Of a stretch of DNA of 64,000 nucleotides, positions 38,754 through 54,356 are shown in pieces. The position numbers and the translations under genes were made by a program. The stretch covers positions 59,604 to 123,603 of the forward strand of contig JAEXCU010000013.1 in NCBI GenBank assembly GCA_023402015.1, given 5' to 3'. Within the stretch, counting starts at the first letter, position 1; every line of letters starts with the position of its first letter. The notes under the pieces were generated by a model. It worked only from the letters and a program-made list of their open reading frames with translations. It made no database searches and had not been told where the DNA came from. This stretch comes from Pseudomonadota bacterium. GTDB lineage: Bacteria > Pseudomonadota > Alphaproteobacteria > Rs-D84.

Positions 38754-38775
38754 TTTTTCCTCCTTGGGTTTTCTA

Positions 38776-38944: not shown

Positions 38945-39112
38945 TACACAATTCAACAGTAAACATGGCGCGGCTTTGCCTTGCAAAGACGGCTGGATCG
39001 CCGCGGTCGCTTCTCTCCCTCGCGATGACAAAGAACTGTCATTGCGAGCAAACGAAGTGCAGCGTGGCAATCCAGTATTATAATATTCATAAAAAAACGC
39101 CGCCGGTTTCCC
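38945..39112. repeat. palindromic repeat cluster (CTCGCGATGACAAAGAACTGTCATTGCGAGC...TGGCAATCCAG)
   Basis: Same family as 18372-18600. Confidence 0.75.
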
Positions 39113-39509
39113 GGCGGTGTTTCCGAATGCCCCGAAAGGAAGGAAAGGAGAAAAAGAAATGGGCATTCTAAACTGTAAAAAGGGTTGGGGCCCAGAGTCC
39201 AGAGGAGAGAGAATGTAGGAGGGAGTCTGAATCCCTGAACCCCACGGGGCTTTCGCACCCGGTCATCGGGTTTAACCCCTTTGACGATTCGTAATGTAAT
39301 ACATATTTTCTTATTTGTCAAGTTATTTTGTCAAATTTTATTTTAGGCCATTTTTTTGCCGCTTTCTGGGATGGGTAAAAACGCGCAAAGCCCCGGAAAT
39401 CATAGTATTCCTAGGAAATGGTGCTTATTGTAAAAAATATCGCTGTGGAATAAAATCAAGTCAGGTAGAAATATCTACCTAGGATTTCTTAAAACAGAGG
39501 AGAGAAAAG

Positions 39510-39755
39510 ATGACACATGATGATGTGTGGCGCGCCATAGAACGTTTTGCAACAGAACATGGCATGTCTTGTTCCGGATTGGCCAAGTGCAGCGGACTGG
39601 ATCCAACCACATTTAATAAATCCAAACGGTGGTCCAAAGAAGGTCAGCCCAGATGGCCGTCAACAAACAGCATTTCAAAAATACTGTCTTCTACGGGATC
39701 CAAAATCCAAGACTTTACTAAATTTATTGATACCCCAGACCAGGGGCGTGAATAA
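39510..39755 (+). CDS. phage CI-like repressor N-terminal HTH domain protein
   Basis: DVWRAIERFATEHGMSCSGLAKCSGLDPTTFNKSKR resembles the Phage_CI_repr N-domain; AGGAGAGA RBS; upstream operator-like palindromes CCTAGG...CCTAGG. Confidence 0.45.
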   Translation: MTHDDVWRAIERFATEHGMSCSGLAKCSGLDPTTFNKSKRWSKEGQPRWPSTNSISKILSSTGSKIQDFTKFIDTPDQGRE

Positions 39756-39846
39756 ACTGTTTGTTTTGGATACATCAGACCACAACGGGAATCCGTTGTG
39801 GTCTTTTTTATAGACAACGGGTAAATCCTTTATTATTCTGGGGTAT

Positions 39847-40266
39847 ATGTTAAGTGGTATTCGTATTTATTCATCTGATGCGCTGTGGCGGCAAATACTG
39901 GGCGATTTAAACGCAACCGTCTTGGACGGGCCGGATGTTGCGGATGTAAACCTGGATACTTTGTCGTTGAAATTGCCGATTTCTGTGGTGGAATTAAAGG
40001 CCGCAATTTTGGGTGCCACGGACAACTCTAACATAATTTGCAATATATTCGGCCGTGAAATCCCATTGCCACGCCTGCAACGCCAGATTATTGTTTTGCT
40101 GTATAAAACCGGTGGAATGTCAATTGCGGATTTAAAAAACGCGTTGGGGTATTCGCCAAACACAACAACCCACACCGTGGATACAGCAATTTATCAATTG
40201 CGTAAAACGTATGGCCACAATTTTATTTTGAACAAGAATGGGATTTACAGTATTGGCCAGTTATAA
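39847..40266 (+). CDS. winged-helix DNA-binding protein (OmpR/PhoB C-terminal-type domain, no receiver)
   Basis: C-terminal SPNTTTHTVDTAIYQLRKTYGHNFI matches trans_reg_C (HTVDVHIRRLRKKL). Confidence 0.5.
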   Translation: MLSGIRIYSSDALWRQILGDLNATVLDGPDVADVNLDTLSLKLPISVVELKAAILGATDNSNIICNIFGREIPLPRLQRQIIVLLYKTGGMSIADLKNALGYSPNTTTHTVDTAIYQLRKTYGHNFILNKNGIYSIGQL

Positions 40267-40918
40267 GTTGATTTCTTTTGATAAAATCCCCAGTACACAG
40301 ACATATGCGTTGGATATGGTTGCATATGGCCAGGCATCTGACCGTACCGTCATTATGGCCGAGGCCCAAAGTGCCGGCCGGGGCCGATATAAACGGCAAT
40401 GGGTTTCACATCACGGCAACCTGTATACCAGTTTTATTTATTATATGGAAGAACGTGATCCGCGTCTGTCGTACGTGGTGGCGGTGGCGATTGTAGAAAC
40501 ACTGATATCATATGGTGTGCAACCAACAATCAAATGGCCCAATGATATCTTGGTGGATGACAAAAAAATCTGTGGCGTGTTAATTGAATATGCCGGGTCT
40601 TTTGTTGTGGTGGGAATTGGCATAAACATCAAAACAAATCCAACAGTTGAAAAATACAAAACAACAAAACTGGAAAATTATGCAAACGTGGCAAAGCCAG
40701 ATTTGCTGAACAGGTTAATGAAGAATTTAGATAAATGGATGGCGGCCGATTTTATTTCTGTGCGTGCGCGATGGATGGAATTGGCAGCCGCATTAAATAA
40801 AATTGTAAAATATCGCGGCGAAGAAGTGGAACTGAACGGTATAAATGAAAATGGTGCGTTGGTTTTACGACGTGGTTCACAATATTTCTTGGCGTATGGT
40901 GATGAAATAACGATGTAA
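40238..40918 (+). CDS. birA: biotin--[acetyl-CoA-carboxylase] ligase
   Basis: BPL motif AEAQSAGRGRYKRQWVSHHGNLYTS; no N-terminal HTH (group I BirA). Confidence 0.8.
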   Translation: MGFTVLASYKLISFDKIPSTQTYALDMVAYGQASDRTVIMAEAQSAGRGRYKRQWVSHHGNLYTSFIYYMEERDPRLSYVVAVAIVETLISYGVQPTIKWPNDILVDDKKICGVLIEYAGSFVVVGIGINIKTNPTVEKYKTTKLENYANVAKPDLLNRLMKNLDKWMAADFISVRARWMELAAALNKIVKYRGEEVELNGINENGALVLRRGSQYFLAYGDEITM

Positions 40919-41087
40919 AAATGGCGGATTTGTGCATATTACAAAATAACGGCTTGACTTTTATCGCGAATTATGATATTATATTTATATAAACAGTAAA
41001 GATTGTACCCACACCACGGTGTGGTTTTTTTTATTTCATTTTGGCCGCATTTTTATGCGGCCTGTTTTATTTAAAAGGATTGTTCGC

Positions 41088-41501
41088 ATGCAATTAAAAT
41101 TGATAAAAAATCCTGATGAAAACAGGGGCATAATTTATAAAATCGCGCGCGTAATATATACCGAAACATCTGCATCATCCCTGATTGCGGTTGAGGCATT
41201 GGCTGCGATGATTGCAAATCGCAGTGCGGCATTAAACCAATCGCCCATGGAAATTATCAATGATTGTGATTTATTTGAATCAAACAATCCCAAATCACCA
41301 CGACATAAACCAACGTCATCGGTGGATGTTAATTCGCGCGGTTTTTGTATGTGTTTGCGGGTTGTGCGACGCATGATGAATTCTGCGCTGGATGATGTAT
41401 GTAATGGTGCGACCATGTTTCATCACAGTGATTGCATGCCACAGTGGGCCGCGGCGCGTGGATATATCGCAGACATTGACGGGTTATTATTTTATGCATA
41501 G
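41088..41501 (+). CDS. cell-wall hydrolase, SleB/CwlJ (Hydrolase_2) family; putative endolysin
   Basis: ATG 41088 after AAAAGGA; IARVIYTETSASSLIAVEALAAMIANRSA ... MFHHSDCMPQWA, the Hydrolase_2 pattern. Confidence 0.65.
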   Translation: MQLKLIKNPDENRGIIYKIARVIYTETSASSLIAVEALAAMIANRSAALNQSPMEIINDCDLFESNNPKSPRHKPTSSVDVNSRGFCMCLRVVRRMMNSALDDVCNGATMFHHSDCMPQWAAARGYIADIDGLLFYA

Positions 41502-41733
41502 GGGGGCGTTGGTGAAAAAAATAATCAGCGGCGGATTCTTGGCAGGGCGCAGAACGTATGTGATATCTGCTGTTGGAATACTGTCGGCGGTGGGCGCATA
41601 TCTGGTGGGGGACACAGATATATTTACGATGTTGCAGGCAATCTTTACATTGGGTGGAATATATTTTCTGCGAAAATCAAGCCAAACAAAAGGAAGCGAA
41701 AATGGAAAAAATCCCAGAAAAATTTCTGAATGA
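41494..41733 (+). CDS. putative class II holin
   Basis: 79 aa, two TM helices (VISAVGILSAVGAYLV, FTMLQAIFTLGGIYFL), K/R-rich C-tail; ATG overlaps hydrolase stop (ATGCATAG); overlaps scaffold gene start by about 30 nt. Confidence 0.45.
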   Translation: MHRGALVKKIISGGFLAGRRTYVISAVGILSAVGAYLVGDTDIFTMLQAIFTLGGIYFLRKSSQTKGSENGKNPRKISE

Positions 41734-42358
41734 AGATGGCACATTAAATGCCGCGGCATTAATGAAGTCTTATTCAGAATTGGAAAAGAAAATTGGAACG
41801 ATGATTTCTGTGCCGGGTGATGATGCCGATGATGCATCACGTGAAAAATTTAAACGTGCAATTGGTGTACCGACATCACCGGATGAATATCCAACCAATG
41901 CAATATTTGATGACGATTCTGTTCGTCAAAAATTTCATGAAATTGGATTAACTGCAACCCAGGTTGAAAAAATTTATCAAATCGCCGAAGAATTTTTATC
42001 ACCTGTGCTGACAGAATTGTTCACAACGCAAAACGAAACAGGTGCGATGTCTGAATTAAAAAGTTTCTTTGGTGGTGAAGAAAAAATGAACGAAGCGTTG
42101 CATGCAATTGCCGCGTTCGGCCAACAGTTTTTACCCCATGATGCATTTGATGCATTATGCGCCACACCCCAGGGAATCCAAAGCGTTTACAACATGATGC
42201 AATCAATGGAACCACATGTTGAAACAGATAAAAATGCAGTTGAAAATTTAACAGATAATGATTTACGACGCATGATGCAGGACCCAAAATATTGGCGCGA
42301 CAAAGATCCAGAATACGTTCGCAAGATTGAAAGCGGATTTAAAAAATTATATTCGTAA
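41702..42358 (+). CDS. T7 gp9-like capsid scaffolding protein
   Basis: C-terminus MMQDPKYWRDKDPEYVRKIESGF aligns with T7 gp9 C-terminus AMSDPRYRTDANYRRQVEQKVIDSNF; acidic body; AAAGGAAG RBS. Confidence 0.65.
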   Translation: MEKIPEKFLNEDGTLNAAALMKSYSELEKKIGTMISVPGDDADDASREKFKRAIGVPTSPDEYPTNAIFDDDSVRQKFHEIGLTATQVEKIYQIAEEFLSPVLTELFTTQNETGAMSELKSFFGGEEKMNEALHAIAAFGQQFLPHDAFDALCATPQGIQSVYNMMQSMEPHVETDKNAVENLTDNDLRRMMQDPKYWRDKDPEYVRKIESGFKKLYS

Positions 42359-42458
42359 ATAAAATGCACTTTCTCCTTTACTAATTTTTATGTTTCCGAT
42401 AAAATATAAATCAAGAACAAAAAAATTTGTTCTATCCAAAAAATAAAAGGAGAGAAGA

Positions 42459-42716
42459 ATGGCATTCACATTCTTGAAGCCAGCCGCAAAGAAAACAGCT
42501 GCGAAAAAGCCAGCTGCGAAACCGGCCGCAAAAAAACCAGTTGCTAAAAAAGCACCTGCGAAAAAAGTTGCTGCTAAACCAGCCGCAAAGAAACCAGTTG
42601 CAAAAAAAGCAGCCGTAAAAAAACCGGTTGCCAAAAAAGCACCTGTGAAAAAAGTTGCTGCGAAACCAGCGGCAAAAAAGACAGTTGCCAAAAAAGCACC
42701 TGCAAAAAGAAAATAA
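42459..42716 (+). CDS. histone H1-like lysine/alanine-rich DNA-binding protein
   Basis: Tandem (P)AAKKPVAKKA repeats, 85 aa, GGAGAGAAGAATG RBS, terminator at 42721-42750. Confidence 0.65.
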   Translation: MAFTFLKPAAKKTAAKKPAAKPAAKKPVAKKAPAKKVAAKPAAKKPVAKKAAVKKPVAKKAPVKKVAAKPAAKKTVAKKAPAKRK

Positions 42717-42988
42717 TATAATCCCGCGTTTGCGGGATTTTTTCTTGTAATGCCCGGATAATCCCCCGGGCATTTTTATTTAAAAAAGTTTCAGTCTGAT
42801 AAGGCAACCCCCAGTCCGACTGAAATTTTTTTTTGGGACAATCCCGCGTGGACCCCGTGTTTTGTTTCATGGCGCACAATATGCATAACCAAAAAACAAA
42901 ATTTTAATCGGCATGCATTGACGCATCAATCACCGATGCGCGTTTTTATATCGCATGTCTGTTTTCATTTTTAACCAAAGGAATATGT

Positions 42989-43828
42989 ATGTCTGTTTCC
43001 ATAGATAACGTCTTCGTGAAACAATTTGAAGCCGACGTCCATTTGGCATACCAACAAATGGGCACAAAATTGCGCGCAACCGTGCGCAGCAAAACCGGTG
43101 TTGTGGGTGCATCCACGACCTTTCAAAAGGTTGGGCGCGGCACCGCCAGCACTAAATCACGTCATGGCATTGTGCCGGTGATGAATTTAAACCATGAACC
43201 TGTGGAATGTCTGTTGCAGGATTATTATGCGGGTGATTGGGTTGATGCATTAGATGAATTAAAAATAAACATAGACGAACGTCGTGTTGTGGCATCTGCG
43301 GGTGCGTATGCATTGGGACGTAAAACCGATGAATTGATTATCGCCGCCATGAATGGTGCAACCGCAACCGTTGGTGATTATTCAACCGGCCTGACCAAGA
43401 ATTTGATTTTGTCCGCCGTTGAAACGCTGAATTCCAAAGATGTTCCAGATGACGGCCGCAGATTCGCGGTTGTTGGGGTGCATCAGTGGAATGAATTATT
43501 GTCATTGGATGAATTTGTTTCCGCCGATTACATTGGCGACGATTTGCCATTGGTAAATGGTGGCGCATCAAAAAAATGGTTGGGGATTACATGGTTGTTG
43601 CATAACGATTTGCCGGTTAATTCTAATAAACGTGATTGCTTTATTTACCATGCCAGCAGCATTGGGCACGCATGTGGCCAAGATGTCAAAACAGATATTT
43701 CTTGGCATGGTGAACGCGCCGCGCATTTTATCAGCAACAGCATGTCCCAGGGTGCAGTTCTGATAGATAGCGACGGTATCGTTCGCGTTAAATGCAGCGA
43801 TGTGGATGCAACAAAATCAAATGAATAA
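42989..43828 (+). CDS. putative major capsid protein (by position after scaffold)
   Basis: 279 aa, strong AAAGGAATATG RBS, follows the gp9-like scaffold as gp10 does in T7; no direct motif. Confidence 0.45.
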   Translation: MSVSIDNVFVKQFEADVHLAYQQMGTKLRATVRSKTGVVGASTTFQKVGRGTASTKSRHGIVPVMNLNHEPVECLLQDYYAGDWVDALDELKINIDERRVVASAGAYALGRKTDELIIAAMNGATATVGDYSTGLTKNLILSAVETLNSKDVPDDGRRFAVVGVHQWNELLSLDEFVSADYIGDDLPLVNGGASKKWLGITWLLHNDLPVNSNKRDCFIYHASSIGHACGQDVKTDISWHGERAAHFISNSMSQGAVLIDSDGIVRVKCSDVDATKSNE

Positions 43829-43839
43829 AAGGATAATAC

Positions 43840-44070
43840 ATGGCGTTTCAAAATAAAAACCTGTCTGTAATTGCATATGCCAATGGATTTACATTATGGC
43901 ACTATGCGGCGAACGAAACAATGGCAACAATCAGTGCCAGTGGATATTTTAACAGTGTTAAAACGCTGATGAATGTTGGGGATATTGTAATCATCAATGC
44001 ATCTGACAATACGTCCATTAAAAAGGTTGGCATCACATCTGGCAATATTACGGTTGCGGCGCTGGCATAA
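43840..44070 (+). CDS. small virion-associated protein (putative)
   Basis: 76 aa ORF tightly packed after capsid gene. Confidence 0.4.
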   Translation: MAFQNKNLSVIAYANGFTLWHYAANETMATISASGYFNSVKTLMNVGDIVIINASDNTSIKKVGITSGNITVAALA

Positions 44071-44137
44071 AAAATACTGATGTTTAATATCGGGCCACAT
44101 TTTGTGGTCCGATTTTTATAAAAGATAAGGGCACAAT

Positions 44138-44656
44138 ATGCTGACGAAAATAGATTTATGTTCAATGGCATTACTGAAATTGGGCGAAAAACCAATTCAA
44201 TCTTTGATAGATGATAATGCCGCCGCGCAATTGGCACGAACGCTGTTTGACCCGGTTATGGATGCACTGATTGCATCACACCCATGGCGATTTGCGTGTA
44301 AATCGTATGATTTGATTAAAAATGCAGATGGTGATTTTTTGATACCGGCCGATTGCCTGCGCGTTGTGAAATGTAATGGCGAAATCATTGGCAACAGAAT
44401 TGTGGCGCGCGACGATGCTATTACGATACTGGCCGTAAATCGCGTTCCGGTTGAATCATATCCGGGGTATTTTGTATCCCTGGCGGCAACCAAATTGGCG
44501 ATGGAATTTTGTATTCCATTGATTGGTGAACAAACGGTATTTCGTATGTTGGCCGCATTATACGAAGATGAACTGCAATCTGCCAAATTCATAGACAGCA
44601 CCACATCCGTTGCACGCGACATAGAAAACTTTTCATTAATTAACGCACGTTTTTAA
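44138..44656 (+). CDS. putative tail/adaptor protein (position of T7 gp11)
   Basis: 172 aa; synteny only. Confidence 0.35.
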   Translation: MLTKIDLCSMALLKLGEKPIQSLIDDNAAAQLARTLFDPVMDALIASHPWRFACKSYDLIKNADGDFLIPADCLRVVKCNGEIIGNRIVARDDAITILAVNRVPVESYPGYFVSLAATKLAMEFCIPLIGEQTVFRMLAALYEDELQSAKFIDSTTSVARDIENFSLINARF

Positions 44657-46383
44657 TGGGGGAAATCATGGGAAATTTTATTAAAACACAAAATTCTTTT
44701 GCAGATGGCGAAGTGGCCCCGGAATTTTATGCCCGCGACAATATAAATGGATTATCCCGATTGGAAAATATGGACGTGCTGGCCGGTGGCGGATTAAAAA
44801 GACGCGCCGGTTTGGAACATGTTGCGGGTTTAAATTCTTATGCGCGCCTGATACCATTTTCTGTGGGCGAAGACGACGATTACCTGTTGGCATTGACCGG
44901 CGGTCATATATTGGTTTTTCACGACGGCGTTCAAATCCAGGATATTTTATGCGTGTGGCCGGCGGCGGCATTGGACAACCTGCAATATGCCCAGCGTTTC
45001 GGTACAATGATATTTGTACATCCCGACTATCAGCCATATGTTTTGAAAAAAACAGGTTCGCAATTCACAATATCTAAATTTAATTTTGCGATAAATGAAA
45101 ATGATATGTCGGTAAACATTCCGTTTATACGGTTTGATGACGCCAGTGGCATAAACATTACAATTTCGTCAAACAGTTTGGGTGGAAATTATGCAACATT
45201 TACAACCAACAAAGATTTTTGGACATCTGATAATGTTGGCACGCGATTGTTGTTATTAAACAAGCAATGGCGCATTGTGCAATATGTCAGTCCAACCGTC
45301 GTTTATGTATATTGTAATGGGCAATTCACAATACCGTCCGCCGCAGTGTCTGATTGGTCTGAATCCGCATTCAGTGAACGTCGTGGATGGCCATGCAGTA
45401 TAACATTTCACCAAGACAGATTGGTTTTTGGCGGTTCGCGTTCATACCCCAGTGGTGTTTGGTTGTCCCAGGTGGGACGTCATGATAATTTCAGTGTCGG
45501 CACCGGTCTGGATGACGAGGCAATATTTATAACCCTGTTGTCGCAACAGCGCCAGCAGATTTGTACCGTGGTCAGCAGCGATAACCTGCAAATTCTGACG
45601 TCTGTGGGTGAATGGGCAATTTCCAGTAAACCATTAACACCGTCTATGGTGGATATAAAACAACATACCGCCGTTGGCAGTGTGGCATCACGATATTTAC
45701 CGCCCCAGAAAATAGAAGGCGCCACAGTTTTTATTTCAGGCAGTAAAAAAGACATACGCGAATTAAGTCTGGATGAACTGGGGGAAAATTATAATGCGTC
45801 TGATTTATGCAGTTTTGCGAAACACTTAATGCAAAATCCCATAGACATCGCATACAACCAACAACGGCGACAATTGTTTGTTGTAATGGCGTCTGGCGAC
45901 ATGGCGGTATTAAACCAAAATTCGTCATTGGGAATATCTGCATGGGGGTCATATAAAACCCAGGGCAATTTTAAATCCGTTGCGGTTATTGCGGGGGAAA
46001 CATTTGTGGTGGTTGAACGCGGCGGCGAATTTGCATTGGAAAAATTTTCAGATTCGGCGTTAACAGATTCGGGCAACCGTGGTTTTTCGTTTGCCGCATC
46101 GGCGTTGCCGCTGCGTGGGTCAGGGCATAATGCGTCATTAATGCGCATTCGCAAAATTACTGCGCGGGTAATAAATACAAAAACACTGTTTATAAATGAA
46201 ATGCGTGCGTCATTGCCAAATGAAATATATACACCTGATTTGCCGGGATTCAGCGGGGATGCAGGTATAAATTTACTGGGGTGTCAGCGCAACTGTATCC
46301 AATCGCCATGGACAATCCAAAGCAGTGAACCATTACCGGCGACAGTACTGTCAATAACGGTGTATGGGTATTATATGGTTTAA
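44656..46383 (+). CDS. putative tail tubular/nozzle protein (position of T7 gp12)
   Basis: 575 aa; start overlaps upstream stop; synteny only. Confidence 0.35.
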   Translation: MGEIMGNFIKTQNSFADGEVAPEFYARDNINGLSRLENMDVLAGGGLKRRAGLEHVAGLNSYARLIPFSVGEDDDYLLALTGGHILVFHDGVQIQDILCVWPAAALDNLQYAQRFGTMIFVHPDYQPYVLKKTGSQFTISKFNFAINENDMSVNIPFIRFDDASGINITISSNSLGGNYATFTTNKDFWTSDNVGTRLLLLNKQWRIVQYVSPTVVYVYCNGQFTIPSAAVSDWSESAFSERRGWPCSITFHQDRLVFGGSRSYPSGVWLSQVGRHDNFSVGTGLDDEAIFITLLSQQRQQICTVVSSDNLQILTSVGEWAISSKPLTPSMVDIKQHTAVGSVASRYLPPQKIEGATVFISGSKKDIRELSLDELGENYNASDLCSFAKHLMQNPIDIAYNQQRRQLFVVMASGDMAVLNQNSSLGISAWGSYKTQGNFKSVAVIAGETFVVVERGGEFALEKFSDSALTDSGNRGFSFAASALPLRGSGHNASLMRIRKITARVINTKTLFINEMRASLPNEIYTPDLPGFSGDAGINLLGCQRNCIQSPWTIQSSEPLPATVLSITVYGYYMV

Positions 46384-46405
46384 TTTTTAACAATGGGGGA
46401 AAAAT

Positions 46406-46753
46406 ATGGGACAAATTGTTTCGGATGTAACATCCATTTTGGATTATAAAAAAGAAAAGAAAGAGGCCAAAAACGAAAGACAAAAAATCTTGGCTGAAAT
46501 GGCGGAAAATGAAAAGACAAAAACCAACCTGGTGAAAAAGGCTTTGGCGGCACAACGTGCCAAATATGGTGCGTCGGGGATGTCAAACCGCGGCATGACC
46601 GAAGGCGCCGTTTTAAAACGTTTAAAGAACGAAACAGAACAACCGTACAATGAAAAACGAAATGCCAGTTTGGAAAAATTAAGAAAAATAAAAGTAAATA
46701 AACCAAATCTATTGAAATCTTTGTTAAGCAGATTTGACGATTTGGTCGGTTGA
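46406..46753 (+). CDS. lysine-rich coiled-coil virion protein (putative)
   Basis: 115 aa, GGGGGAAAAATATG RBS. Confidence 0.4.
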   Translation: MGQIVSDVTSILDYKKEKKEAKNERQKILAEMAENEKTKTNLVKKALAAQRAKYGASGMSNRGMTEGAVLKRLKNETEQPYNEKRNASLEKLRKIKVNKPNLLKSLLSRFDDLVG

Positions 46754-46768
46754 TATAGGGGCACAGAT

Positions 46769-47317
46769 ATGCATAAAATTTCATATACCGGTGATGGCGA
46801 AACGAATGAATACCTGTTTGCTTTTCCATTTTTTCAGACGGGCGATGTGCGCGTTGCATTGAATAATGTTGTTCAGGATGCATCCAAATACAGTGTGATT
46901 GCCAACGAAGATTTTACCGGCGGCACCGTGGTTTTTCCGGCCCCGGTTGATACAGGCATTCAGATTGATATCTTTCGCCAGGTGTCTTTGACCCGTGTTG
47001 TTGATTATCAACCCACCGCCAAGATTGATCCAGAAAATCTGAACAGCGATTTTAATTTTTTATTGGCGGCGTTTCAGGACCTGCATGCGGTTGATATAGA
47101 CCTGGCCGAATGGGCGAATACACACGACAATGTGTTATCTTTTCTGCAATATAATTTACAGGTAATACAAGATAAACTGTCGGGTGGGTCGGTTATGGGG
47201 CTGTATCGTAATTTATTAACTGTGTTGGACAGTGCGTTGCCCACGTTGATAAATGATTATGGTTCCATTAACGAACCGGCGCCGGGTGAAAACAGTGATG
47301 ACTACGGCGTTTTATAA
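46769..47317 (+). CDS. tail fibre protein, T7 gp17 N-terminal (tail-attachment) domain only
   Basis: MHKISYTGDGETNEYLFAFPFFQTGDVRVALNNV... parallels T7 gp17 N-terminus (YQLDGSNRDFNIPFEYLARKFVVVTL); only 182 aa, no distal fibre domain. Confidence 0.6.
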   Translation: MHKISYTGDGETNEYLFAFPFFQTGDVRVALNNVVQDASKYSVIANEDFTGGTVVFPAPVDTGIQIDIFRQVSLTRVVDYQPTAKIDPENLNSDFNFLLAAFQDLHAVDIDLAEWANTHDNVLSFLQYNLQVIQDKLSGGSVMGLYRNLLTVLDSALPTLINDYGSINEPAPGENSDDYGVL

Positions 47318-47900
47318 TTTCTTGGATGAATGGAATGCATTGATTGGCATGAAAACGCCGGAACACCACCGTAAAATAATGGAATTTTTGGTGGCAACGT
47401 TAAATGATGCGCCGCATCGTGGGTTGCTGATGGCGTTTCGTCATTCGGGAAAATCAACCGTTGTGGGAATCTTTGCGGCATGCGTGTTATATTTGCATCC
47501 GGAAACCAGAATATTAATTCTGTCCGCGGAAAGCCGTTTGGCTGCACGCATGGTTGCGCATATTCGTCATATTTTGGAAAACCATCCGCGATGCAGTGAA
47601 ATGGTTCCCACAATAAAAAAAGAATGGGCGTCAGGACGCATCACAATCAATCGGCCGATTGGAATTCGCGAACCGTCCGTCGTATGCCAGGGTGTACATG
47701 GAAATATAACCGGTTTGCGCGCGGATTTAATTATTTGCGATGACGTAGAGGTTCCAAATACAACCAATACGGCACAAAAACGGGAAAACCTGCGGGAAAG
47801 GTTGCGGGAATTGGATTTTATATTATCACCCACCGGCACAATGATTTACATTGGTACGCCGCACACAACAGATACGATTTATCGTACAACGGAAAAGTAA
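47298..47900 (+). CDS. terminase large subunit, N-terminal ATPase fragment
   Basis: Walker A FRHSGKST, Walker B LIICDDVE, motif III-like YIGTPHT; ends abruptly after the ATPase core. Confidence 0.65.
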   Translation: MTTAFYNFLDEWNALIGMKTPEHHRKIMEFLVATLNDAPHRGLLMAFRHSGKSTVVGIFAACVLYLHPETRILILSAESRLAARMVAHIRHILENHPRCSEMVPTIKKEWASGRITINRPIGIREPSVVCQGVHGNITGLRADLIICDDVEVPNTTNTAQKRENLRERLRELDFILSPTGTMIYIGTPHTTDTIYRTTEK

Positions 47901-48581
47901 TTAAATTGATGTCGGTGCATCCGGTGCGTTGTCCGTGTCATACTGATCGCGGGTGCTGATAAATGTGCGCAGTTTGCCCAACAATTCTGTGCCTGCGTCG
48001 CCAAACATCGGCAGGTATGTTTCATATTCGGGCATGTCTGCCTGTAATTGCGCGCGCGCGCGTTCGGACAGTGGCTGATTTAACATATCACTGGCAACCT
48101 TCCACAGGAAATATGCCCGGTATGTTTTGGTGATGATTGACCATTTATCCAACAGGTCCGGTCGTTCCGCCAATGCGGCGCGTATTGCGACAATCCATTC
48201 ATCGCCAAATTTTTTAATAACGGGTAATTCCTGGATTTGGTCCAGGCCTGCCTGGTCGGGGGTAAATGCGTTAATACCGTTTTCCAATTCAGTCCATTCA
48301 GACGGCAATAATGGTACCGTTGCAACGGTTTCGGCCATCATGCCACCATATGGCAATAAATCGCGGTCAATGCTGTTCATTGGGGTTTTGCCACTGCGCA
48401 GGTTTGCAATGTGTTGAACCAAACTTTTGCCCGTGGGCAATTGTGATATTTCGTGCAGAACGTCATCATCCGCTTCGCCAATAAATATTTCATTAACAGC
48501 GGCCCAACCGCCAAATATAACGTGTTCTTGACGATACAGGTTTAATAATTTTTGTGCGACAACGCTGGCTTTTGGTTTCAT
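47901..48581 (-). CDS. hypothetical protein (last gene of dnaB-repressor module)
   Basis: 226 aa; co-directional with dnaB and repressor; function unknown. Confidence 0.45.
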   Translation of the reverse strand: MKPKASVVAQKLLNLYRQEHVIFGGWAAVNEIFIGEADDDVLHEISQLPTGKSLVQHIANLRSGKTPMNSIDRDLLPYGGMMAETVATVPLLPSEWTELENGINAFTPDQAGLDQIQELPVIKKFGDEWIVAIRAALAERPDLLDKWSIITKTYRAYFLWKVASDMLNQPLSERARAQLQADMPEYETYLPMFGDAGTELLGKLRTFISTRDQYDTDNAPDAPTSI

Positions 48582-48614
48582 TTCACAGTCCCCCCGGTTG
48601 TGATGACGAACGAA

Positions 48615-49622
48615 TTATTCCATAACAATCATGATAACCTTGTGCATGGTGCGGCCGATAATTTTTTCTTCGGGTGAAGATACCTGGCCGTACAGTTTGC
48701 CCTTGGAATCTGCACGCACACTGACAATTTGTGCGGTGGCGGTATCATTGGAATCCAAAGAATTAAAATCTGTATCAATGCAAACGGCCAAATCACCAAC
48801 GACCGGCGCAATGTTCGCGTCCGCAAATACATATGATTTTTCAGGAATAAATCCGCCCATTCTTTTGGTGTTTGGAACAACGGCATAAATACCCTGGCGG
48901 CCTTCCAGTGTTAAGGGTGCCACAATCATTGTTTTGTCAGATTTTTTGAAACTGATTGCTTTGCCAGATGGAACACCGAACACAGGCACCAATTTTTTAC
49001 GTGCACTGTCGTATAATTTTGCGCCATACAAACTGCTGTGCATGTCAATGCCAGACAATGGATTGCCCGGAATCAGAACGGATTTTACGCGTTCTTTGAC
49101 CTTGTTAATTTGTTTATTTAAATCACCAGATTTATACAGGGTTGCAATTTTATCAAACAATGCATCAACACTGTATGCAAAGGATTTTGCCAATGGTTCA
49201 ATTTCATTTTGGTAAACTTCGCGTTGGCCAACCTCTATCTTGTGATAAACGGACAGGGTCATGCCGGCGTCTTTGGCCGCCTGGGCAATTGTTTTGCCGG
49301 TTTGTTGACGGATTTTGCGCAGGCCACTGCCGAATATTTTCAGGCCGCTGTCTTCGTTATCATTCATACGGCGTTTGATTTCGTTTTGCCATTGATTTGC
49401 AACATCGTCAGATTCTTTGATAAATATATCGGATAATTTGCAACCCAAAATATTGCAGATATTCAGCAATTGTTTTTGGTTCAGACGACGTACGCCTTTT
49501 TCAATTTTGGATACCGCAGACAAAGACAAATTGGATTGACGGGCCAATTCGGTCATTTTCATGCCCGCCGCCAAACGAATATTTCTGATGTTATTTGGGA
49601 AAATTATTTCTTCTTGGGCCAT
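48615..49622 (-). CDS. CI/LexA-like repressor: two XRE HTH domains plus C-terminal S24-like domain (catalytic Ser apparently absent)
   Basis: HTH1 MTELARQSNLSLSAVSKIEKG, HTH2 IAQAAKDAGMTLSVYHKIEVG; C-terminus KRMGGFIPEKSYVFADANIAPVVGDLAVCID resembles the LexA GDSM...GDLVLVD block, but G-D-S-M is replaced. Confidence 0.6.
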   Translation of the reverse strand: MAQEEIIFPNNIRNIRLAAGMKMTELARQSNLSLSAVSKIEKGVRRLNQKQLLNICNILGCKLSDIFIKESDDVANQWQNEIKRRMNDNEDSGLKIFGSGLRKIRQQTGKTIAQAAKDAGMTLSVYHKIEVGQREVYQNEIEPLAKSFAYSVDALFDKIATLYKSGDLNKQINKVKERVKSVLIPGNPLSGIDMHSSLYGAKLYDSARKKLVPVFGVPSGKAISFKKSDKTMIVAPLTLEGRQGIYAVVPNTKRMGGFIPEKSYVFADANIAPVVGDLAVCIDTDFNSLDSNDTATAQIVSVRADSKGKLYGQVSSPEEKIIGRTMHKVIMIVME

Positions 49623-49687
49623 CGCACAACTCCTGTACTATCTTGACAAAATATTAGTCAATTTTTATATGCTTGGCAAGAAAATAA

Positions 49688-51247
49688 TTACAAACCAATG
49701 TCGTCGGGAATTGCGTTGGCGTCAATAATTTCTGGTGCAAAATCGCCATCAGATGGTGAATTGTTCTGTGCGCCAGAATTTGTAAATCCACCGGAAGGAT
49801 TGATTTCAATTTCATCCAGATTGTCAAACAAACTGTAATCGCCAAAGAACGCCAAATGAACACTTTCGGGACGGCCATGTCGGTTTTTTCCGATGATAAC
49901 ATCCGCCTTGCCACGGGCGCGTTCCAGACGTTTTTGATAACTTTCCTGGATTTTATCGTTGGTGTTGCCCGACAATCGTTGGGACGGATCGCGATTTTCC
50001 AAATAGTATTCTTCGCGGTACGTGAACATAACAATGTCGGCGTCCTGTTCAATAGACCCCGATTCACGCAAATCGGCCAGTTGCGGACGTTTGTCATCGC
50101 GGGATTCAACGCTGCGCGACAACTGGGACAGGGCGATAACCGGCACATCCAATTCTTTGGCCAGCATTTTCAGACCACGTGTGATTTCGGAAATTTCCTG
50201 GACACGGTTATCATTGCGCCGGCCACCGGGCGACGTCATTAATTGCAGATAATCAATTACGATTAATGCAATACCGCCCGCCTTGCGCGCCAGACGACGT
50301 GCACGCGTGCGCATCATGGGAACGGACATACCGGGGGTGTCGTCAATGAACAGTGGGACCTTGCTGATGGCGGCACTGTATTGCGACATTTTTAAAAAAT
50401 CTTCGTCTGTCAATGTGCCTTCACGCATGGCCGATGCCGGAATTTTTGACTGCGATGCCAAAACACGCGCGGCCAATTGCGATGCAGACATTTCCAAACT
50501 GAAAAATGCGACGGCGCCTTTGTATTTTTCATTGGCGCGTCCGTACAGAATTGCATTTGCGGCATTAAACGCAATATTCATCGCCAGGGTTGTTTTACCC
50601 ATTGCGGGACGACCGGCGATGATAATTAAATCACTGTGGTGCAGACCGCTGATGGATTTGTCCAACGCGTTTAATCCGGTGGTCAGACCGGATAATTTTC
50701 CGTCGGCCTTGTATGCGATTTCTGCCTCTTGTAATGCGGATTGTAATGCGGTTGCAATTGACGACACTTCGCGTTCAGATGTACCCGATGTCGCCATTTC
50801 AAACAGTTGTTGTTCCGCCAATTCAATTTGGCGCGAAACAGGATTGTCCAAATCTTCTATGAATGCAGAATCAGTTATTGATTGCCCCAGGTTGATTAAA
50901 TCGCGCCGTAATGCGTTTTCATAAACAATACGGCCATATTGTTCAACATTAACAACCGTTGCACCCGCACCAGATAATTGCGTCAGATAATCAACACCGC
51001 CAACAGATTCCAATGTTCCCTGTTGGTCCAGATAATTTTTCGCCGTGATTATATCAAACGGAATACCTGCGGCAAATTGGCGTTCGGCCAATTTATAAAT
51101 TTCTTGGTGCGCAGGATGGGAAAAATGTTCCGGTTTCAGGAATTCAGCAACGCGTTCCAGCGCGCGGTTATTCATCAATACCGCGGCCAGGACGGCCTGT
51201 TCTGCTTCCAGATTTGTTGGCAAAGTTTTGGGAGTAAAGTCCATGTC
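49688..51247 (-). CDS. dnaB: replicative DNA helicase DnaB
   Basis: N-domain LPTNLEAEQAVLAAVLM, Walker A IIAGRPAMGKTTLAMN, H4 motif, Arg finger; ATG at 51245-51247; C-terminal extension of about 50 aa. Confidence 0.85.
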   Translation of the reverse strand, partial: DMDFTPKTLPTNLEAEQAVLAAVLMNNRALERVAEFLKPEHFSHPAHQEIYKLAERQFAAGIPFDIITAKNYLDQQGTLESVGGVDYLTQLSGAGATVVNVEQYGRIVYENALRRDLINLGQSITDSAFIEDLDNPVSRQIELAEQQLFEMATSGTSEREVSSIATALQSALQEAEIAYKADGKLSGLTTGLNALDKSISGLHHSDLIIIAGRPAMGKTTLAMNIAFNAANAILYGRANEKYKGAVAFFSLEMSASQLAARVLASQSKIPASAMREGTLTDEDFLKMSQYSAAISKVPLFIDDTPGMSVPMMRTRARRLARKAGGIALIVIDYLQLMTSPGGRRNDNRVQEISEITRGLKMLAKELDVPVIALSQLSRSVESRDDKRPQLADLRESGSIEQDADIVMFTYREEYYLENRDPSQRLSGNTNDKIQESYQKRLERARGKADVIIGKNRHGRPESVHLAFFGDYSLFDNLDEIEINPSGGFTNSGAQNNSPSDGDFAPEIIDANAIPDDIGL

Positions 51248-52091
51248 AGATATAGTATATAAAAATTTTGCTTTTTCAACGCCTTTTTTGCATGGATATC
51301 GTGAATTAAGAATTCCGATTGTGGATGCCAATGGTGTGCCCGCGTGGCCGGATGTTTATCCGATTTCACGAATAGAAATGTTGCGTGAAACGGTTGGGCC
51401 GCGGCACTTTTCATCCCAGATGATGTTGGAATTCGTATCCATGGACCGGGCGCGGTTGGACCCGGATGCGTTGCACATGTATAATGCGGATTTTGATGCG
51501 CGCACGGCAAAAATTGGTGATAACCAAATTACCAGCGTGGTGGTGTATTGGGACCCGTCCACGGGACGCGCAGGACGCGACGGCAGTGTTTGCGTATTGC
51601 TGTATCGTGATGACCATGCGCGACGCGCATTCATTCACGATGTTGTATATCTGACCGTGTCAGACGGTGAACTGCACCCATTGGCGCGGCAATGCGAAAT
51701 GATATTGGATTTTATGCGCCGTCATGGTGTGGGGCGAATTATCATTGAGACAAACGGTATCGGAAACGCGTTGCCTGAAATTATGCGCGATGTCGCAACG
51801 CGCCGTGGCGCGGGTATTAATGTCCAGAAAATCACAAATAATAAAAATAAACAGACGCGAATCCTGGATGCGATTGAACCCGTGCTGACCACCGGGCGCC
51901 TGTATGCGCATGCGCGCGTTCAACATACACCATTACTGGCAGAAATGCTGGGGTGGTGCCCGATTGGGACCACCGGCCATGACGACGGATTGGATGCATT
52001 GGCCGGTGCAATAACGGCCGTGCCAACGCCCGTTCGCCCATTGGGTGGGCGTGTTCGCCCCATAATGGCAAATACAAATTTTACCATTTAA
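51243..52091 (+). CDS. terminase large subunit, C-terminal nuclease fragment
   Basis: RNaseH-like nuclease acidic residues VVVYWDPSTGRAGRDGS, IIIETNGIG, GHDDGLDAL (Terminase_6C pattern); GGGAG RBS; ATG 51243. Confidence 0.65.
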   Translation: MSDIVYKNFAFSTPFLHGYRELRIPIVDANGVPAWPDVYPISRIEMLRETVGPRHFSSQMMLEFVSMDRARLDPDALHMYNADFDARTAKIGDNQITSVVVYWDPSTGRAGRDGSVCVLLYRDDHARRAFIHDVVYLTVSDGELHPLARQCEMILDFMRRHGVGRIIIETNGIGNALPEIMRDVATRRGAGINVQKITNNKNKQTRILDAIEPVLTTGRLYAHARVQHTPLLAEMLGWCPIGTTGHDDGLDALAGAITAVPTPVRPLGGRVRPIMANTNFTI

Positions 52092-52174
52092 AGATTTGTT
52101 CAGATATTTCATATGGAAAATATCTGCCACAAAAATTATGCGAAATAAATTTGCAAAGAAAAAAGGATTTAATT

Positions 52175-53407
52175 ATGCAAACAGATTTAAATAATTTGCA
52201 GCAAATGTATCGTCGTGCGCTGGATGCGCGTTCGCCGTGGCTGGCCCGGTGGGACAGTGCAAAAAAATACACCATGCCAACCGCCGATGATGATTTGGCG
52301 GTTTTGTTTGACGCGACCGCGGCAGACGCGGTTGATAACCTGGCCGCGTCAATGTATTCATTGCTGACCCCGCCGGAATCATTATGGTTGAATCTGGTGC
52401 CGGAAAGTGATGCGTCGCCCGACGCCGCCACGGCAACGGGGGCACTGCGTGCGAACATAAACGATTCAAATTTTTATACGACAATTCATCAATGCTATCT
52501 GGATTTGGTGGTTTTGGGTACGGCATGTTTATTCATGTCGGAAAACCCAATTGGTGGTGCGTCTGCGTTTTCTTTTACCGCAATTCCGATGACGGATATC
52601 GCAATTCTGCCGGGGGCGGTTTTTCATACCACGTCCATGCCGGCGCGCGATGTTATGGAAAAATATCCCACATGGACACCACCGGCGGATTTACGCGATA
52701 AAATAAAAAAAGACCCCGATACCCCGCTGCGTTTGGTGCAAAGTTTGGTTAATACGGAATTTACCGCGTGGTTGGATGTGGGTGGGAATATACAAAACAA
52801 TATTGTGTCGCGTGGAACGTTTGAAACCAATCCGTATTTAATATTTCGCTGGTCGCTGGCCAGTGGTGAAATATACGGGCGCAGTCCGGTTATGCGGGCA
52901 TTACCCGATATTAAAACCGCAAACAAAGTCGTTGAATTGGTGTTAAAAAACGCAACCATTGCCGTTTCCGGCATATGGCAGGCCGATGACGACGGTGTAA
53001 TAAACCTGGCAAATATAAACCTGACGCCGGGTGCAATTATACCCAAGGCCGTTGGTTCATCGGGCCTGACCCCGCTGTCCGCCGGGGCCGATTTTGATGT
53101 TTCCCAGATAATATTAACAGACCTGCGCGATAGAATCAGACACGCATTGTTGGCGGACCGTTTGGGATTGTTGAGTGAAAAAGAAATGACGGCGACCGAA
53201 ATAATGGCGCGCAACGCCGATATGATGCGCATATTGGGTGCAACGTACGGACGACTGTTGCATGAATTTATCCGACCATTATGCGAACGCGGATTACAAA
53301 TTTTATCGCGTCGCGGTGTTATTCCAAAAATATCACTGCATGGCGATGCGGAATTAAAATATATTGCGCCGATTGCCCAAATGGCCGCGGCAGAAAATGT
53401 TATATAG
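52175..53407 (+). CDS. T7 gp8-like portal (head-tail connector) protein
   Basis: NLAASMYSLLTPPESLWLNL aligns with T7 gp8 NLASKLMLALFPMQTWMRL; about 410 aa; position after terminase. Confidence 0.6.
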   Translation: MQTDLNNLQQMYRRALDARSPWLARWDSAKKYTMPTADDDLAVLFDATAADAVDNLAASMYSLLTPPESLWLNLVPESDASPDAATATGALRANINDSNFYTTIHQCYLDLVVLGTACLFMSENPIGGASAFSFTAIPMTDIAILPGAVFHTTSMPARDVMEKYPTWTPPADLRDKIKKDPDTPLRLVQSLVNTEFTAWLDVGGNIQNNIVSRGTFETNPYLIFRWSLASGEIYGRSPVMRALPDIKTANKVVELVLKNATIAVSGIWQADDDGVINLANINLTPGAIIPKAVGSSGLTPLSAGADFDVSQIILTDLRDRIRHALLADRLGLLSEKEMTATEIMARNADMMRILGATYGRLLHEFIRPLCERGLQILSRRGVIPKISLHGDAELKYIAPIAQMAAAENVI

Positions 53408-53417
53408 GGGTAAAATC

Positions 53418-53609
53418 ATGAAAGAAATAGAATTAAATTATGCACGCTGCTTTGGTACCGCCGCGGGCGCCGCGGTATTGGCGCACCTGCGTCGGATTAC
53501 GATTGAACGTGCCCTGGGGCCGGATGCAACCGATGCGCAACTGCGTGGGTTGGAAGCGCAGCGCACCCTGGTACATCAAATTGAAAATATGATAGAGCGG
53601 GGTAAATAA
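53418..53609 (+). CDS. small hypothetical protein
   Basis: 63 aa, AGGGGTAAAATCATG RBS. Confidence 0.4.
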   Translation: MKEIELNYARCFGTAAGAAVLAHLRRITIERALGPDATDAQLRGLEAQRTLVHQIENMIERGK

Positions 53610-53611
53610 CC

Positions 53612-53869
53612 ATGTCATCACAGCAAAGCGCAATGGGCATTGTGGATTTTCTGCGCGACAGTTGGTTTTTAATTGCATTTATTGCCGGCATGATTTATTG
53701 GGTCGCGCGCCAGGATTCATCCCTGGCCGATATCCAGCGTGCCGACCAGCGTTTAACATCATTGGAAAACCGCACGACAATACTGGAAACAGGCATTGGC
53801 CAATTGCAGATAAAAATAGACGGCATCAAAGATGACGTTGCATTAATAAAAACCGCCGTTATAAAATAA
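53612..53869 (+). CDS. membrane-anchored coiled-coil protein (i-spanin/holin-like)
   Basis: One N-terminal TM (WFLIAFIAGMIYWV) followed by coiled coil; 85 aa. Confidence 0.4.
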   Translation: MSSQQSAMGIVDFLRDSWFLIAFIAGMIYWVARQDSSLADIQRADQRLTSLENRTTILETGIGQLQIKIDGIKDDVALIKTAVIK

Positions 53870-53904
53870 AGAATAACCGCCGAATTTTATTTCGGCGATT
53901 TTGT

Positions 53905-54138
53905 TCAGATTTTGGGCCAGTTTTCGCCCTTGATTAAATCAGGCTGGGTCGCATTTATAAACAGATACATTTGATATATGCTGATTGGTTTCTGGGCCGA
54001 TTCATATTGTTGATATTCAACCAATGATACGCCCAATTTATCGGCAATGAATTGCTGGGATAAACCCAACTTTTCACGTGTTGCGCGAATTGATGCGGCA
54101 ATTTCCTGATAGAACATTTGTTCATTTTTATTTTGCAT
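53905..54138 (-). CDS. small XRE-family HTH protein (paralog C)
   Basis: ATG 54136-54138 after GGGGAGGGGATAACAAAC; HTH LSQQFIADKLGVSLVEYQQYESA; 78 aa. Confidence 0.6.
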   Translation of the reverse strand: MQNKNEQMFYQEIAASIRATREKLGLSQQFIADKLGVSLVEYQQYESAQKPISIYQMYLFINATQPDLIKGENWPKI

Positions 54139-54356
54139 GTTTGTTATCCCCTCCCCACACTTGCTCCGATGAAATACCACCATATAAATATGGTGGTTGG
54201 AGTTTAAGAACAATTGAGTGAATTGCGTGCTCTATTCAATATATTCAGCACACTCCAACCACTTGGTTGGACTTTCACCCGCTTTGGATGAAACACTCAA
54301 GGGATTCTTACGCCCCATGGCAGAAATCACGCTGCCACAGAAAGATTATATGGTTT
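54139..54356 (-). ncRNA. structured RNA leader, family member C
   Basis: Minus strand: CCATATAAT -10, hairpin GGCAGCGTGATTTCTGCC, CTCCAACCAAGTGGTTGGAGTGTGCTGAATAT, terminal hairpin CCACCATATTTATATGGTGG + TATTT, then RBS. Confidence 0.5.

Follow-up and report, generated by a model that had tools for sequence, protein, structure and literature searches.

Gene transfer agents (GTAs) known from Alphaproteobacteria derive from long-tailed phages. RcGTA and CcGTA are encoded by ~13-15 kb of chromosomal head, tail and packaging genes that are linked to lysis genes, include no integration or replication genes, and are inherited vertically under purifying selection. Expression of CcGTA needs antiterminator-controlled read-through of terminators within the cluster (PMC11150451). 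FpGTA from Faecalibacterium prausnitzii is a podovirus-like GTA-like element that is organized in small operons and conserved across the genus; its particles and their ~9 kb of packaged DNA were shown experimentally, and it has been called the first podovirus-like GTA (PMC12946183). Here, we describe a phage-derived cluster of T7-like genes, ~13 kb long (~1.5% of the genome), in a stretch of 64,000 nucleotides that we refer to as the window (GenBank assembly GCA_023402015.1, contig JAEXCU010000013.1, positions 59,604 to 123,603 of the forward strand). Its host is Candidatus Enterousia (Alphaproteobacteria, order Rs-D84), an uncultured lineage that is frequent in human and livestock guts. Enterousia genomes measure ~0.75-1.0 Mb and lack the tricarboxylic acid cycle and a respiratory chain (PMC12306168). 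Literature searches returned no published account of phage-like genes in Enterousia or Rs-D84, and searches on Bbp19, tail-tubular GTAs and split terminases found no earlier description of the cluster.

The Enterousia cluster shares with RcGTA and CcGTA the size, the chromosomal head, tail and packaging genes, the linkage to lysis genes, the lack of integration and replication genes, and vertical inheritance under purifying selection; its relatives carry the same holin family (PF11351). It differs from RcGTA in ancestry: RcGTA has an HK97-type long-tailed origin, with a prohead protease, a tape measure and a small terminase, whereas the Enterousia cluster is T7-type and has no protease or small terminase. 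RcGTA also has neither a split terminase nor a nested essential host gene. With its T7-type portal, scaffold and tail tube, its PF19821 capsid, and no protease or tape measure, the Enterousia cluster falls outside the RcGTA-like Rhodogtaviriformidae. Function has been demonstrated for RcGTA and CcGTA, while the Enterousia cluster is known from its genes alone. FpGTA can be likened to it by description only, as a short-tailed element of a gut bacterium, and differs in its Firmicutes host, its two separate operons and the presence of TerS.

T7-like phages share with the Enterousia cluster homologues of the portal, the scaffold, tail tubular proteins A and B, the fibre N-terminal domain and the large terminase (TerL). 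The gp8/gp9/gp11/gp12/gp17/gp19 set of Autographivirales is thus present, with the fibre represented by its N-domain only and the terminase split; the cluster has no RNA polymerase (RNAP) and no gp14-gp16. In contrast to T7-like phages, no RNAP, DNA polymerase, primase, core proteins or small terminase were found, the portal gene follows TerL, TerL is split, and the cluster has a fixed chromosomal location and has diverged together with its host.

Conservation, selection and inheritance of the cluster

We hold with high confidence that the cluster is a host-owned, selected set of particle genes derived from a phage. Mapping the window proteins onto other genomes located it in 57 species-level genomes, and so in at least 57 species, and it is collinear in 56 of these genomes. 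The scan covered one genome per GTDB species and was anchored on TerL-N, the N-terminal part of the terminase. The 19 genes are all undamaged, in as many as 57 species. No species has a disrupted gene, and apparent stops within alignments fall only at the termini of open reading frames (ORFs). Identity to the window ranges from 79 to 90% for the capsid protein and from 77 to 88% for the portal (both where the full gene is covered), from 64 to 90% for DnaB and from 54 to 77% for BirA.

Every gene of the cluster is under purifying selection. Among eight unsaturated close pairs (dS 0.3-0.6), NG86 dN/dS never exceeds 0.14 (range 0.00-0.14); over all usable pairs it is 0.07-0.31. Close-pair values for the capsid (0.013), portal (0.023), p85 (0.017), rep335 (0.03), TerN (0.039), p226 (0.056) and TerC (0.088) genes stand beside those for the host genes dnaB (0.026) and birA (0.056), and dS is alike for cluster and host genes in these pairs. 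The host flank gives pairwise distances that correlate with those in the structural genes (r = 0.78) and, equally well, with those in dnaB (r = 0.77). The cluster is vertically inherited, selected and resident in the chromosome. These are traits by which GTAs are recognized, and the cluster and its flanks also hold no replication, integration or excision genes of their own. Bacteria with reduced genomes shed nearly all that they can do without; the retention of ~1.5% of this genome under selection of dnaB strength argues for a real benefit.

The preliminary description, made from the window alone, had offered three interpretations: a decaying T7-like prophage, a satellite, or a domesticated particle-producing cluster with GTA-like logic. 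Decay would explain why many T7 genes are lacking, why the terminase is split and why the fibre is truncated, and a cryptic prophage might persist because it had escaped deletion or because the essential genes dnaB and birA are entangled with it. We consider this very improbable. The 19 genes remain intact across a lineage that has shrunk below 1 Mb, dN/dS is as low for structural genes as for the rest, and the cluster co-diverges with its host; entanglement with dnaB could guard DNA from deletion but not codons from drift.

A still-mobile element, either a very small temperate phage or a helper-dependent satellite that always integrates beside birA, is also improbable, though less so than decay. 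IMG/VR tools classify many copies as proviruses, the cluster includes lysis genes and a repressor-like gene, and a related 5-kb fragment comes from a human faecal "bacteriophage" record. However, the cluster and the flanks examined yielded no gene for an integrase, excisionase, replication initiator or polymerase, and repeats resembling att sites around the cluster are short and at chance level, so that neither the integrase, att sites and replication module of a functional temperate prophage nor the integrase and replication initiator or primase of a satellite such as phage-inducible chromosomal islands (PICI) or their capsid-forming variants (cf-PICI) was found. Moreover, a cellular dnaB and birA are embedded, dS equals that of host genes, distances follow the host flank, and the cluster is passed on vertically at a fixed place in the chromosome. 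Collinearity across 57 species, intact ORFs, selection and co-divergence instead favour the third interpretation, and the comparison of dN/dS across relatives that had been proposed as a check gave the purifying selection that domestication would predict.

The left junction, hth81-x139-birA, is fixed: wherever a locus extends far enough to show it (46 loci), x139 and birA lie at the left. On the right, the flank depends on the species and varies by host rearrangement rather than as an empty site. The cluster had been placed between birA and rne; the birA side of this holds across species, while rne is the right-hand neighbour here only, with DUF4223/UPF0102, BamA-RseP-CdsA-UppS-Frr or other genes elsewhere.

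T7-type gene content

We scanned the ORFs between birA and rne against Pfam, PHROGs and NCBIfam (Table 1). The profile searches bear out the view of the locus as a reduced T7-like late-gene cluster, including the similarities first noticed by eye between the scaffold and T7 gp9, between the product of 52175-53407 and the T7 gp8 portal, and between the fibre N-terminus and T7 gp17. A SleB-type hydrolase with an overlapping holin-like gene and a histone-H1-like protein are likewise present. The reported circular permutation of the T7 gene order also stands, and relatives in Rhodospirillales keep the T7 order. The cluster thus has a T7-type portal, scaffold, tail tube, fibre and terminase; its capsid is closest to those of HTVC010P-type pelagiphages.

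As the preliminary description had stated, gp14-16, RNAP, DNA polymerase and integrase are missing from the cluster; no polymerase or integrase was found in the flanks examined either. No protein of the size or family of a T7-type single-subunit RNAP occurs in the cluster, among the window ORFs examined, or in the flanks of the 57 species. The tail tubular B gene (tubB) is the sole large ORF between the capsid and terminase genes, where gp14-16 ejection and core proteins were looked for. In some species, stops lie upstream of Met5 of tubB, which identifies Met5 as the true start.

Table 1. Features of the Enterousia cluster and its immediate surroundings (window positions unless a locus number is given)
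Feature	Position	Strand	Match or basis
hth81, 81-aa helix-turn-helix (HTH) protein, candidate cluster regulator	39510-39755	+	
terminator-like hairpin after hth81	39777-39804		
x139, 139 aa, small alpha/beta N-domain and C-terminal winged helix, candidate regulator	39847-40266	+	
birA, biotin-protein ligase without HTH domain, host housekeeping gene	40238-40918	+	PF03099 in orthologues
late promoter and leader	40953-41075	+	sequence scan
tandem leader terminators	41009-41024; 41043-41062		hairpin plus T-run
cell-wall hydrolase, SleB/Hydrolase_2-type endolysin	41055-41501	+	phrog_938 E 3e-7; PF07486 E 9e-4, below cutoff
holin-like protein, 79 aa, two hydrophobic helices	41494-41733	+	read from sequence
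scaffolding protein, T7 gp9 type	41702-42358	+	PF05396 E 1.3e-8, above gathering score; phrog_3742
histone-H1/HC2-like AKKP-repeat protein, 85 aa	42459-42716	+	PF07382 and NF038053, both below cutoff
terminators after the H1-like gene	42720-42774		
major capsid protein	42989-43828	+	PF19821 E 1e-71; phrog_3437
p76, small conserved protein	43840-44070	+	phrog_18004; always after capsid gene
terminator after p76	44089-44113		
tail tubular protein A (tubA), gp11-type adaptor	44138-44656	+	PF17212 E 6.5e-5; phrog_394 E 5e-32
tail tubular protein B (tubB), gp12-type nozzle	44668-46383	+	phrog_376 E 5e-81
p115, small coiled-coil virion protein, T7 gp13/gp14 position	46406-46753	+	homologues in relatives
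fibre N-terminal (tail-attachment) domain, 182 aa	46769-47317	+	PHROG tail-fibre families, best E 1.6e-11
TerL-N, ATPase core of T7-type large terminase	47298-47900	+	phrog_38 positions 269-461, E 1e-42
p226, all-alpha, last gene of dnaB block	47901-48581	-	no family match
rep335, two Cro/CI-type HTH domains and C-terminal domain	48615-49622	-	HTH_3 x2, E 2e-19
dnaB, cellular replicative helicase	49688-51244	-	nested between terminase halves
TerL-C (terC), rest of ATPase domain and RNaseH-like nuclease	51243-52091	+	PF22530 E 1.4e-9; phrog_38 positions 481-709
portal, T7 gp8 type	52175-53407	+	PF12236 Head-tail_con E 2e-84, profile positions 3-440 of 489
Bbp19-like small protein	53418-53609	+	PF25181 E 1.2e-12
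p85, N-terminal transmembrane helix and coiled coil, last cluster gene	53612-53869	+	read from sequence
terminator after p85	53878-53897		
rne, right-hand neighbour in this species	54408-56204		
Mtd_N-type fibre (other species)	L019:15223-15714; L007:12339-12842		also in L013, L016, L020, L022, L024-L027, L030, L035, L037, L068

The split terminase and the nested dnaB block

The terminase is encoded by two ORFs with 3.3 kb of opposite-strand genes between them. The terminase had earlier been noted as a single gene; a T7-type TerL is indeed present, in two pieces. TerL-N starts at Met16, has the ATPase motifs RHSGKST (Walker A), DLIICDDVE (Walker B) and IGTPH (motif III), and ends ten residues past motif III, while TerL-C carries the nuclease motifs YWDPS, ETNG and DDGLDA. 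We show that the catalytic motifs of both halves are invariant or nearly so in 51-58 sequences. TerL-N aligns to T7 gp19 and to residues 43-214 of T7-family TerL (PDB 4bij, 8dgc), and the joined halves (residues 4-464 of 482) align in one piece to unsplit TerLs of T7-type phages. Because the halves abut, with nothing missing and no extra residues, rejoining by a split intein or by splicing is ruled out. The TerL of pelagiphage Hodr is not homologous to that of Enterousia and was set aside as an unsplit reference; T7-type TerLs were used instead.

The genes between the halves are dnaB, rep335 and p226. DnaB scores above the cutoffs of the cellular equivalog models NF006606 (615 versus 540 bits) and TIGR00665 (511 versus 385 bits) and below that of phage_DnaB TIGR03600 (414 versus 499 bits). 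Thus, of the dnaB/repressor module proposed in the preliminary description, the DnaB and the regulator with two HTH domains are confirmed, but the phage origin of dnaB is not: on these NCBIfam scores, it is a cellular-type helicase and not a phage module. The regulator, rep335, is 70-89% identical across species. p226 has no match in Pfam, PHROG or NCBIfam, and its AF2 model (pLDDT 90) matches no PDB fold; exhaustive HMMER searches of 1.8e9 proteins found only 45 representative homologues, and its longer relatives have no informative domains.

The block is tightly fitted into the terminase. The dnaB start codon (minus strand, 51244-51242) and the terC start codon (51243-51245) overlap in the palindrome CATG, and the stop codons of TerN and p226 abut. 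TCCATG is invariant in 52 of 52 species, even at its G, which is free of constraint from dnaB coding. The first terC codons contain a promoter-like sequence for dnaB (TTGAAA-16-TACTAT, 51279-51252), which predicts a near-leaderless dnaB mRNA. Across the block, the plus strand has no strong terminator, and direct repeats resembling att sites around it are short and at chance level.

An independent, low-GC relative from IMG/VR (locus L122; capsid 66% identical) has its TerL split at the identical residue and no dnaB block. Its terminase halves (L122:8416-10261) are separated by a 335-nt spacer with promoter-like and terminator-like sequences, and its portal likewise follows TerL. Since L122 has the same split without the block, the split probably preceded the insertion of host genes, with the spacer taking them in later.

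The promoter-terminator leader and candidate regulators

The functional unit begins before 41088, the left limit first given for the cluster: its promoter lies at ~40953, and hth81 and x139 stand upstream of birA. Always adjacent to the cluster, birA sits between these regulators and the late promoter and marks the conserved left junction. The late promoter has a -35 element CTTGACT, a 17-nt spacer, an extended -10 (TGATATTAT) and a conserved leader of ~20 nt, which is followed by two tandem intrinsic terminators, each with a T-run, before the first cluster gene. We find this layout in all 45 species compared, with CTTGACT, a 17-nt spacer with TGnTAnnAT, and a short conserved leader. The terminators start ~20 nt downstream; under a strict rule that requires an explicit hairpin plus T-run, a tandem pair is counted in 33 species and a single terminator in 12. 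Their stems covary, such that sequences vary by species and complementarity is kept. Global minimum-free-energy folding is unsuited for counting them because the A-rich leader pairs with the T-runs.

Terminators are also conserved at two internal sites, between scaffold and capsid genes (45 of 46 species) and after p76 (46 of 53), and there are essentially none in the other short intergenic spaces of the cluster. An Rfam scan of the whole window found tRNAs only, so the leader matches no known RNA family, and the CtrA box TTAA-N7-TTAA has two matches in the window, which is below chance, and none inside the cluster. Late operons under antitermination control are laid out in this way, with lysis genes at the front and a strong promoter that leads directly into terminators. 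In phage lambda, pR' is followed at once by the tR' terminators, the Q antiterminator acts there, and lysis genes come first with head genes after. The lambda late operon resembles the Enterousia leader in layout only; no Q homologue was found. By this analogy, the promoter-terminator leader suggests antitermination control.

Candidate antitermination factors are x139, hth81 and rep335. The hth81 gene lies directly upstream of x139 in 46 of 46 loci (72-96% identity). Across 74 aa, its product is 58% identical to the N-terminal part of the S24 repressor of Varunaivibrio, and it is the counterpart of the DNA-binding N-domain of the LexA/CI-type (S24) repressor that flanks Rhodospirillales clusters, without the peptidase domain. 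The comparison indicates that the S24 autocleavage domain of the ancestral repressor was lost in Enterousia. All 236 homologues of x139 are Enterousia-like. Its profile matches are weak (MarR/HTH_24 and sigma-region-4-like), and the top PDB matches of its AF2 model (pLDDT 85) are OmpR-type winged-HTH regulators at only E~2e-3. We also considered x139 as a relative of GafA, GafZ or Q; weak winged-helix matches were all that was found, and they establish no link.

Several observations concern the DNA upstream of hth81. An extra small HTH gene lies at 38523-38753 (minus strand), and a stretch of ~750 nt within 38523-39509 has no convincing ORF and no Rfam match. In many other species, a rumA-like methyltransferase gene is only ~400 nt from hth81.

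Relatives in Rhodospirillales and the closest phages

Capsid-anchored scans and look-ups revealed homologous clusters of ~15 kb in Rhodospirillales, among them Azospirillum, Skermanella, Varunaivibrio and Constrictibacter. Capsid identity is 75-98% between these clusters and ~59-63% when they are compared with Enterousia. The typical layout begins with an S24 repressor, two or three small genes, the portal, usually a Bbp19-like gene, the scaffold, the capsid and p89, and continues with tubA, tubB, a p115 homologue, a variable tailspike, an unsplit TerL, p107 and Hydrolase_2; two of the four clusters examined end with a GTA_holin_3TM (PF11351) gene. They have no replication genes and no clear integrase. 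The Azospirillum copy has one faint integrase-like ORF in its flank, and its portal is truncated in one strain. Azospirillum and Skermanella clusters have a common right flank, DUF952-pyrD. In one Azospirillum locus (L152:6739-9576), the scaffold and capsid genes enclose two further genes: a host gene for a 783-aa PAS-GGDEF-EAL signalling protein and a gene with a PRC domain. We found no publication that describes or names this Rhodospirillales/Enterousia family.

The Rhodospirillales and Enterousia clusters share gene families in nearly the same order, including p115, p76, the Bbp19-like protein and the hydrolase, with hth81 corresponding to the S24 repressor N-terminus. The Rhodospirillales clusters differ in their T7 order (portal first, TerL and then lysis last), their unsplit TerL and full-length portal, their large variable tailspike and their full S24 repressor. 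By comparison, the Enterousia version is reduced and rearranged, with dnaB nested inside. From its genes, the Enterousia cluster thus looks like a reduced, rearranged branch of an old domesticated element.

Among true phages, the closest are HTVC010P-type pelagiphages for the capsid and T7-like phages for TerL; the capsid and portal are 44% and 31% identical, respectively, to those of pelagiphage EXVC031P Hodr. We did not equate the cluster with the "10-kb GTA" of Azospirillum, which older literature ties to an RcGTA-like gene arrangement. The particles of that GTA, the subject of work by Boyer et al. in 2008, are reportedly long-tailed.

A proposed mechanism

With moderate confidence, we favour the reading that this is a domesticated podovirus-type cluster that would act as a GTA as follows. 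In most cells, RNA polymerase would start at the strong promoter downstream of birA and halt at the one or two terminators ~20 nt on. In a producing cell, an antitermination-type signal would permit read-through of the leader, scaffold/H1 and p76 terminators, after which the hydrolase, holin, scaffold, capsid, tail tube, p115 and fibre N-domain would be expressed. Transcription possibly then runs antisense through p226, rep335 and dnaB into terC, portal, Bbp19 and p85; terC has no intergenic space for a promoter, and read-through would also occlude the dnaB promoter inside terC.

Procapsids would form on the portal, and the two-polypeptide terminase, with the ATPase core in one chain and the lid plus nuclease in the other, would package DNA. 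Since there is no recognizable small terminase, the packaged DNA is probably host DNA taken up by headful. A short tail would be added, and the cell would lyse. RcGTA delivers DNA only to the periplasm, and the lack of gp14-16 ejection proteins together with the truncated portal crown suggests the same limit here. The losses fit non-specific DNA packaging and delivery to the periplasm; they also leave room for a function other than transfer.

Several points weigh against a GTA function. Particles, packaging and transfer are all deduced from sequence, read-through into terC is conjecture, and the antiterminators are candidates only. Anchoring the scan on TerL-N makes Enterousia genomes free of the cluster invisible to it. 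We know of no demonstrated precedent for an active terminase that is split within the ATPase domain. No small terminase, ejection proteins or, in this species, distal receptor-binding protein was found in the cluster, and the fibre N-domain is missing in 8 of 57 species. Finally, related phages with a capsid protein of similar size hold ~35 kb, so that a particle might hold the whole 13-kb cluster, unlike those of classical GTAs.

It is possible, although we think it unlikely, that the particle system is domesticated and selected for a benefit other than gene transfer, such as lysis that sets free DNA or public goods, a particle that kills or adheres to competitors or to cells on which the host may depend, or a decoy in defence against related phages. 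Conservation and selection apply equally to such a system, the ejection proteins were not found, and the receptor-binding end is reduced and variable, with the fibre N-domain lost in some species and an Mtd_N fibre present in 13-14 of 45. However, the intact portal and the conserved ATPase and nuclease motifs argue for selection on DNA packaging itself, and tailocins, which are known killing particles, to our knowledge have no head, portal or terminase.

More tentatively, an ancient podovirus-derived GTA family may span Rhodospirillales and Rs-D84 and have been rewired in Enterousia, with a two-polypeptide terminase, an antisense operon for the putatively sole helicase between its two halves, and antiterminated read-through that would express terC and portal while switching off dnaB and rep335. 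Such a shut-off would give the producing cell a built-in point of no return.

If the GTA reading is true, a T7-like short-tailed phage was domesticated independently of the long-tailed ancestors of known alphaproteobacterial GTAs, and free-living Rhodospirillales and gut bacteria with genomes below 1 Mb share this domestication. If the Enterousia and Rhodospirillales clusters make particles, they are an alphaproteobacterial podovirus-like case independent of FpGTA. The cluster offers a test of whether gene exchange counters mutational decay in small asexual genomes, and possibly represents an overlooked route of DNA mobilization in human and livestock guts. Its promoter-terminator leader provides a handle on the switch that commits a cell to particle production. 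A split terminase, a nested essential host gene and divergent overlapping starts in 52 of 52 species together make an unusual gene architecture.

Lysis, head, tail and right-end genes

The hydrolase is 29% identical (E 5e-14) to the Hydrolase_2 gene product of the Varunaivibrio cluster. The holin-like gene, conserved in more than 40 species, overlaps both the 3' end of the hydrolase gene and the 5' start of the scaffold gene. It has no family match in Pfam or PHROG scans; it occupies the position of the PF11351 GTA_holin_3TM gene in relatives, with no significant similarity. The H1-like gene consists of 15-nt periodic repeats (AKKPA-type), and an ORF of 38-160 aa rich in Lys, Ala, Pro and Val lies between scaffold and capsid in 45 of 46 species (locus L047 is ambiguous). 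Its product may condense DNA in the head, or it may be a nucleoid protein of the host whose gene sits in the cluster.

An 81% identical duplicate (ATGTCTGTTTTCATTTTTAAC) of the capsid gene start (ATGTCTGTTTCCATAGATAAC) lies 34 nt upstream of it (window 42955-43009). The N-terminal 22 residues of p76 (MAFQNKNLSVIAYANGFTLWHY, window 43840-43905) are invariant in 54 of 54 sequences and far more conserved than the rest of p76 or the neighbouring proteins. Homologues of p76 follow the capsid gene in pelagiphage Hodr and in Rhodospirillales clusters as well.

With E-values of 3e-7 to 1e-5, hmmsearch matched p115 to the protein after tubB in four Rhodospirillales clusters. No other profile matched a small gene there: those of x139, p85, the holin and p226 gave nothing significant. 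The fibre similarity covers the first ~100 residues and extends over many PHROG families, orthologues have weak matches to PF03906 (Phage_T7_tail), and the protein is 26% identical to the N-terminus of the 454-aa Varunaivibrio fibre. The Mtd_N-type fibre of other species, 150-170 aa long, is encoded 20-900 nt after p85 and is absent from this window. It has a conserved N-terminus (MSRQIQxRRGT...LRVHDG) and a variable C-terminus, and may be the missing receptor-binding protein.

The portal aligns to residues 11-447 of the 568-aa Varunaivibrio portal and does not have the C-terminal ~120 residues of its relatives. The Bbp19-like gene follows the portal gene in Rhodospirillales clusters and in Hodr too. 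p85, at the right end, is 56-84% identical in 45 species.

Neighbouring genes

Between p85 and rne, outside the conserved cluster, a 102-aa Cro/CI-type HTH protein is encoded at 53905-54213 (minus strand). Apart from ~30% matches in three others, this species alone has the gene. Further to the right, a 409-aa protein at 61875-63104 contains a phage-type lysozyme domain (Glyco_hydro_108); in other species (L010-L012), GH108 genes resembling it are found ~10 kb away from the cluster.

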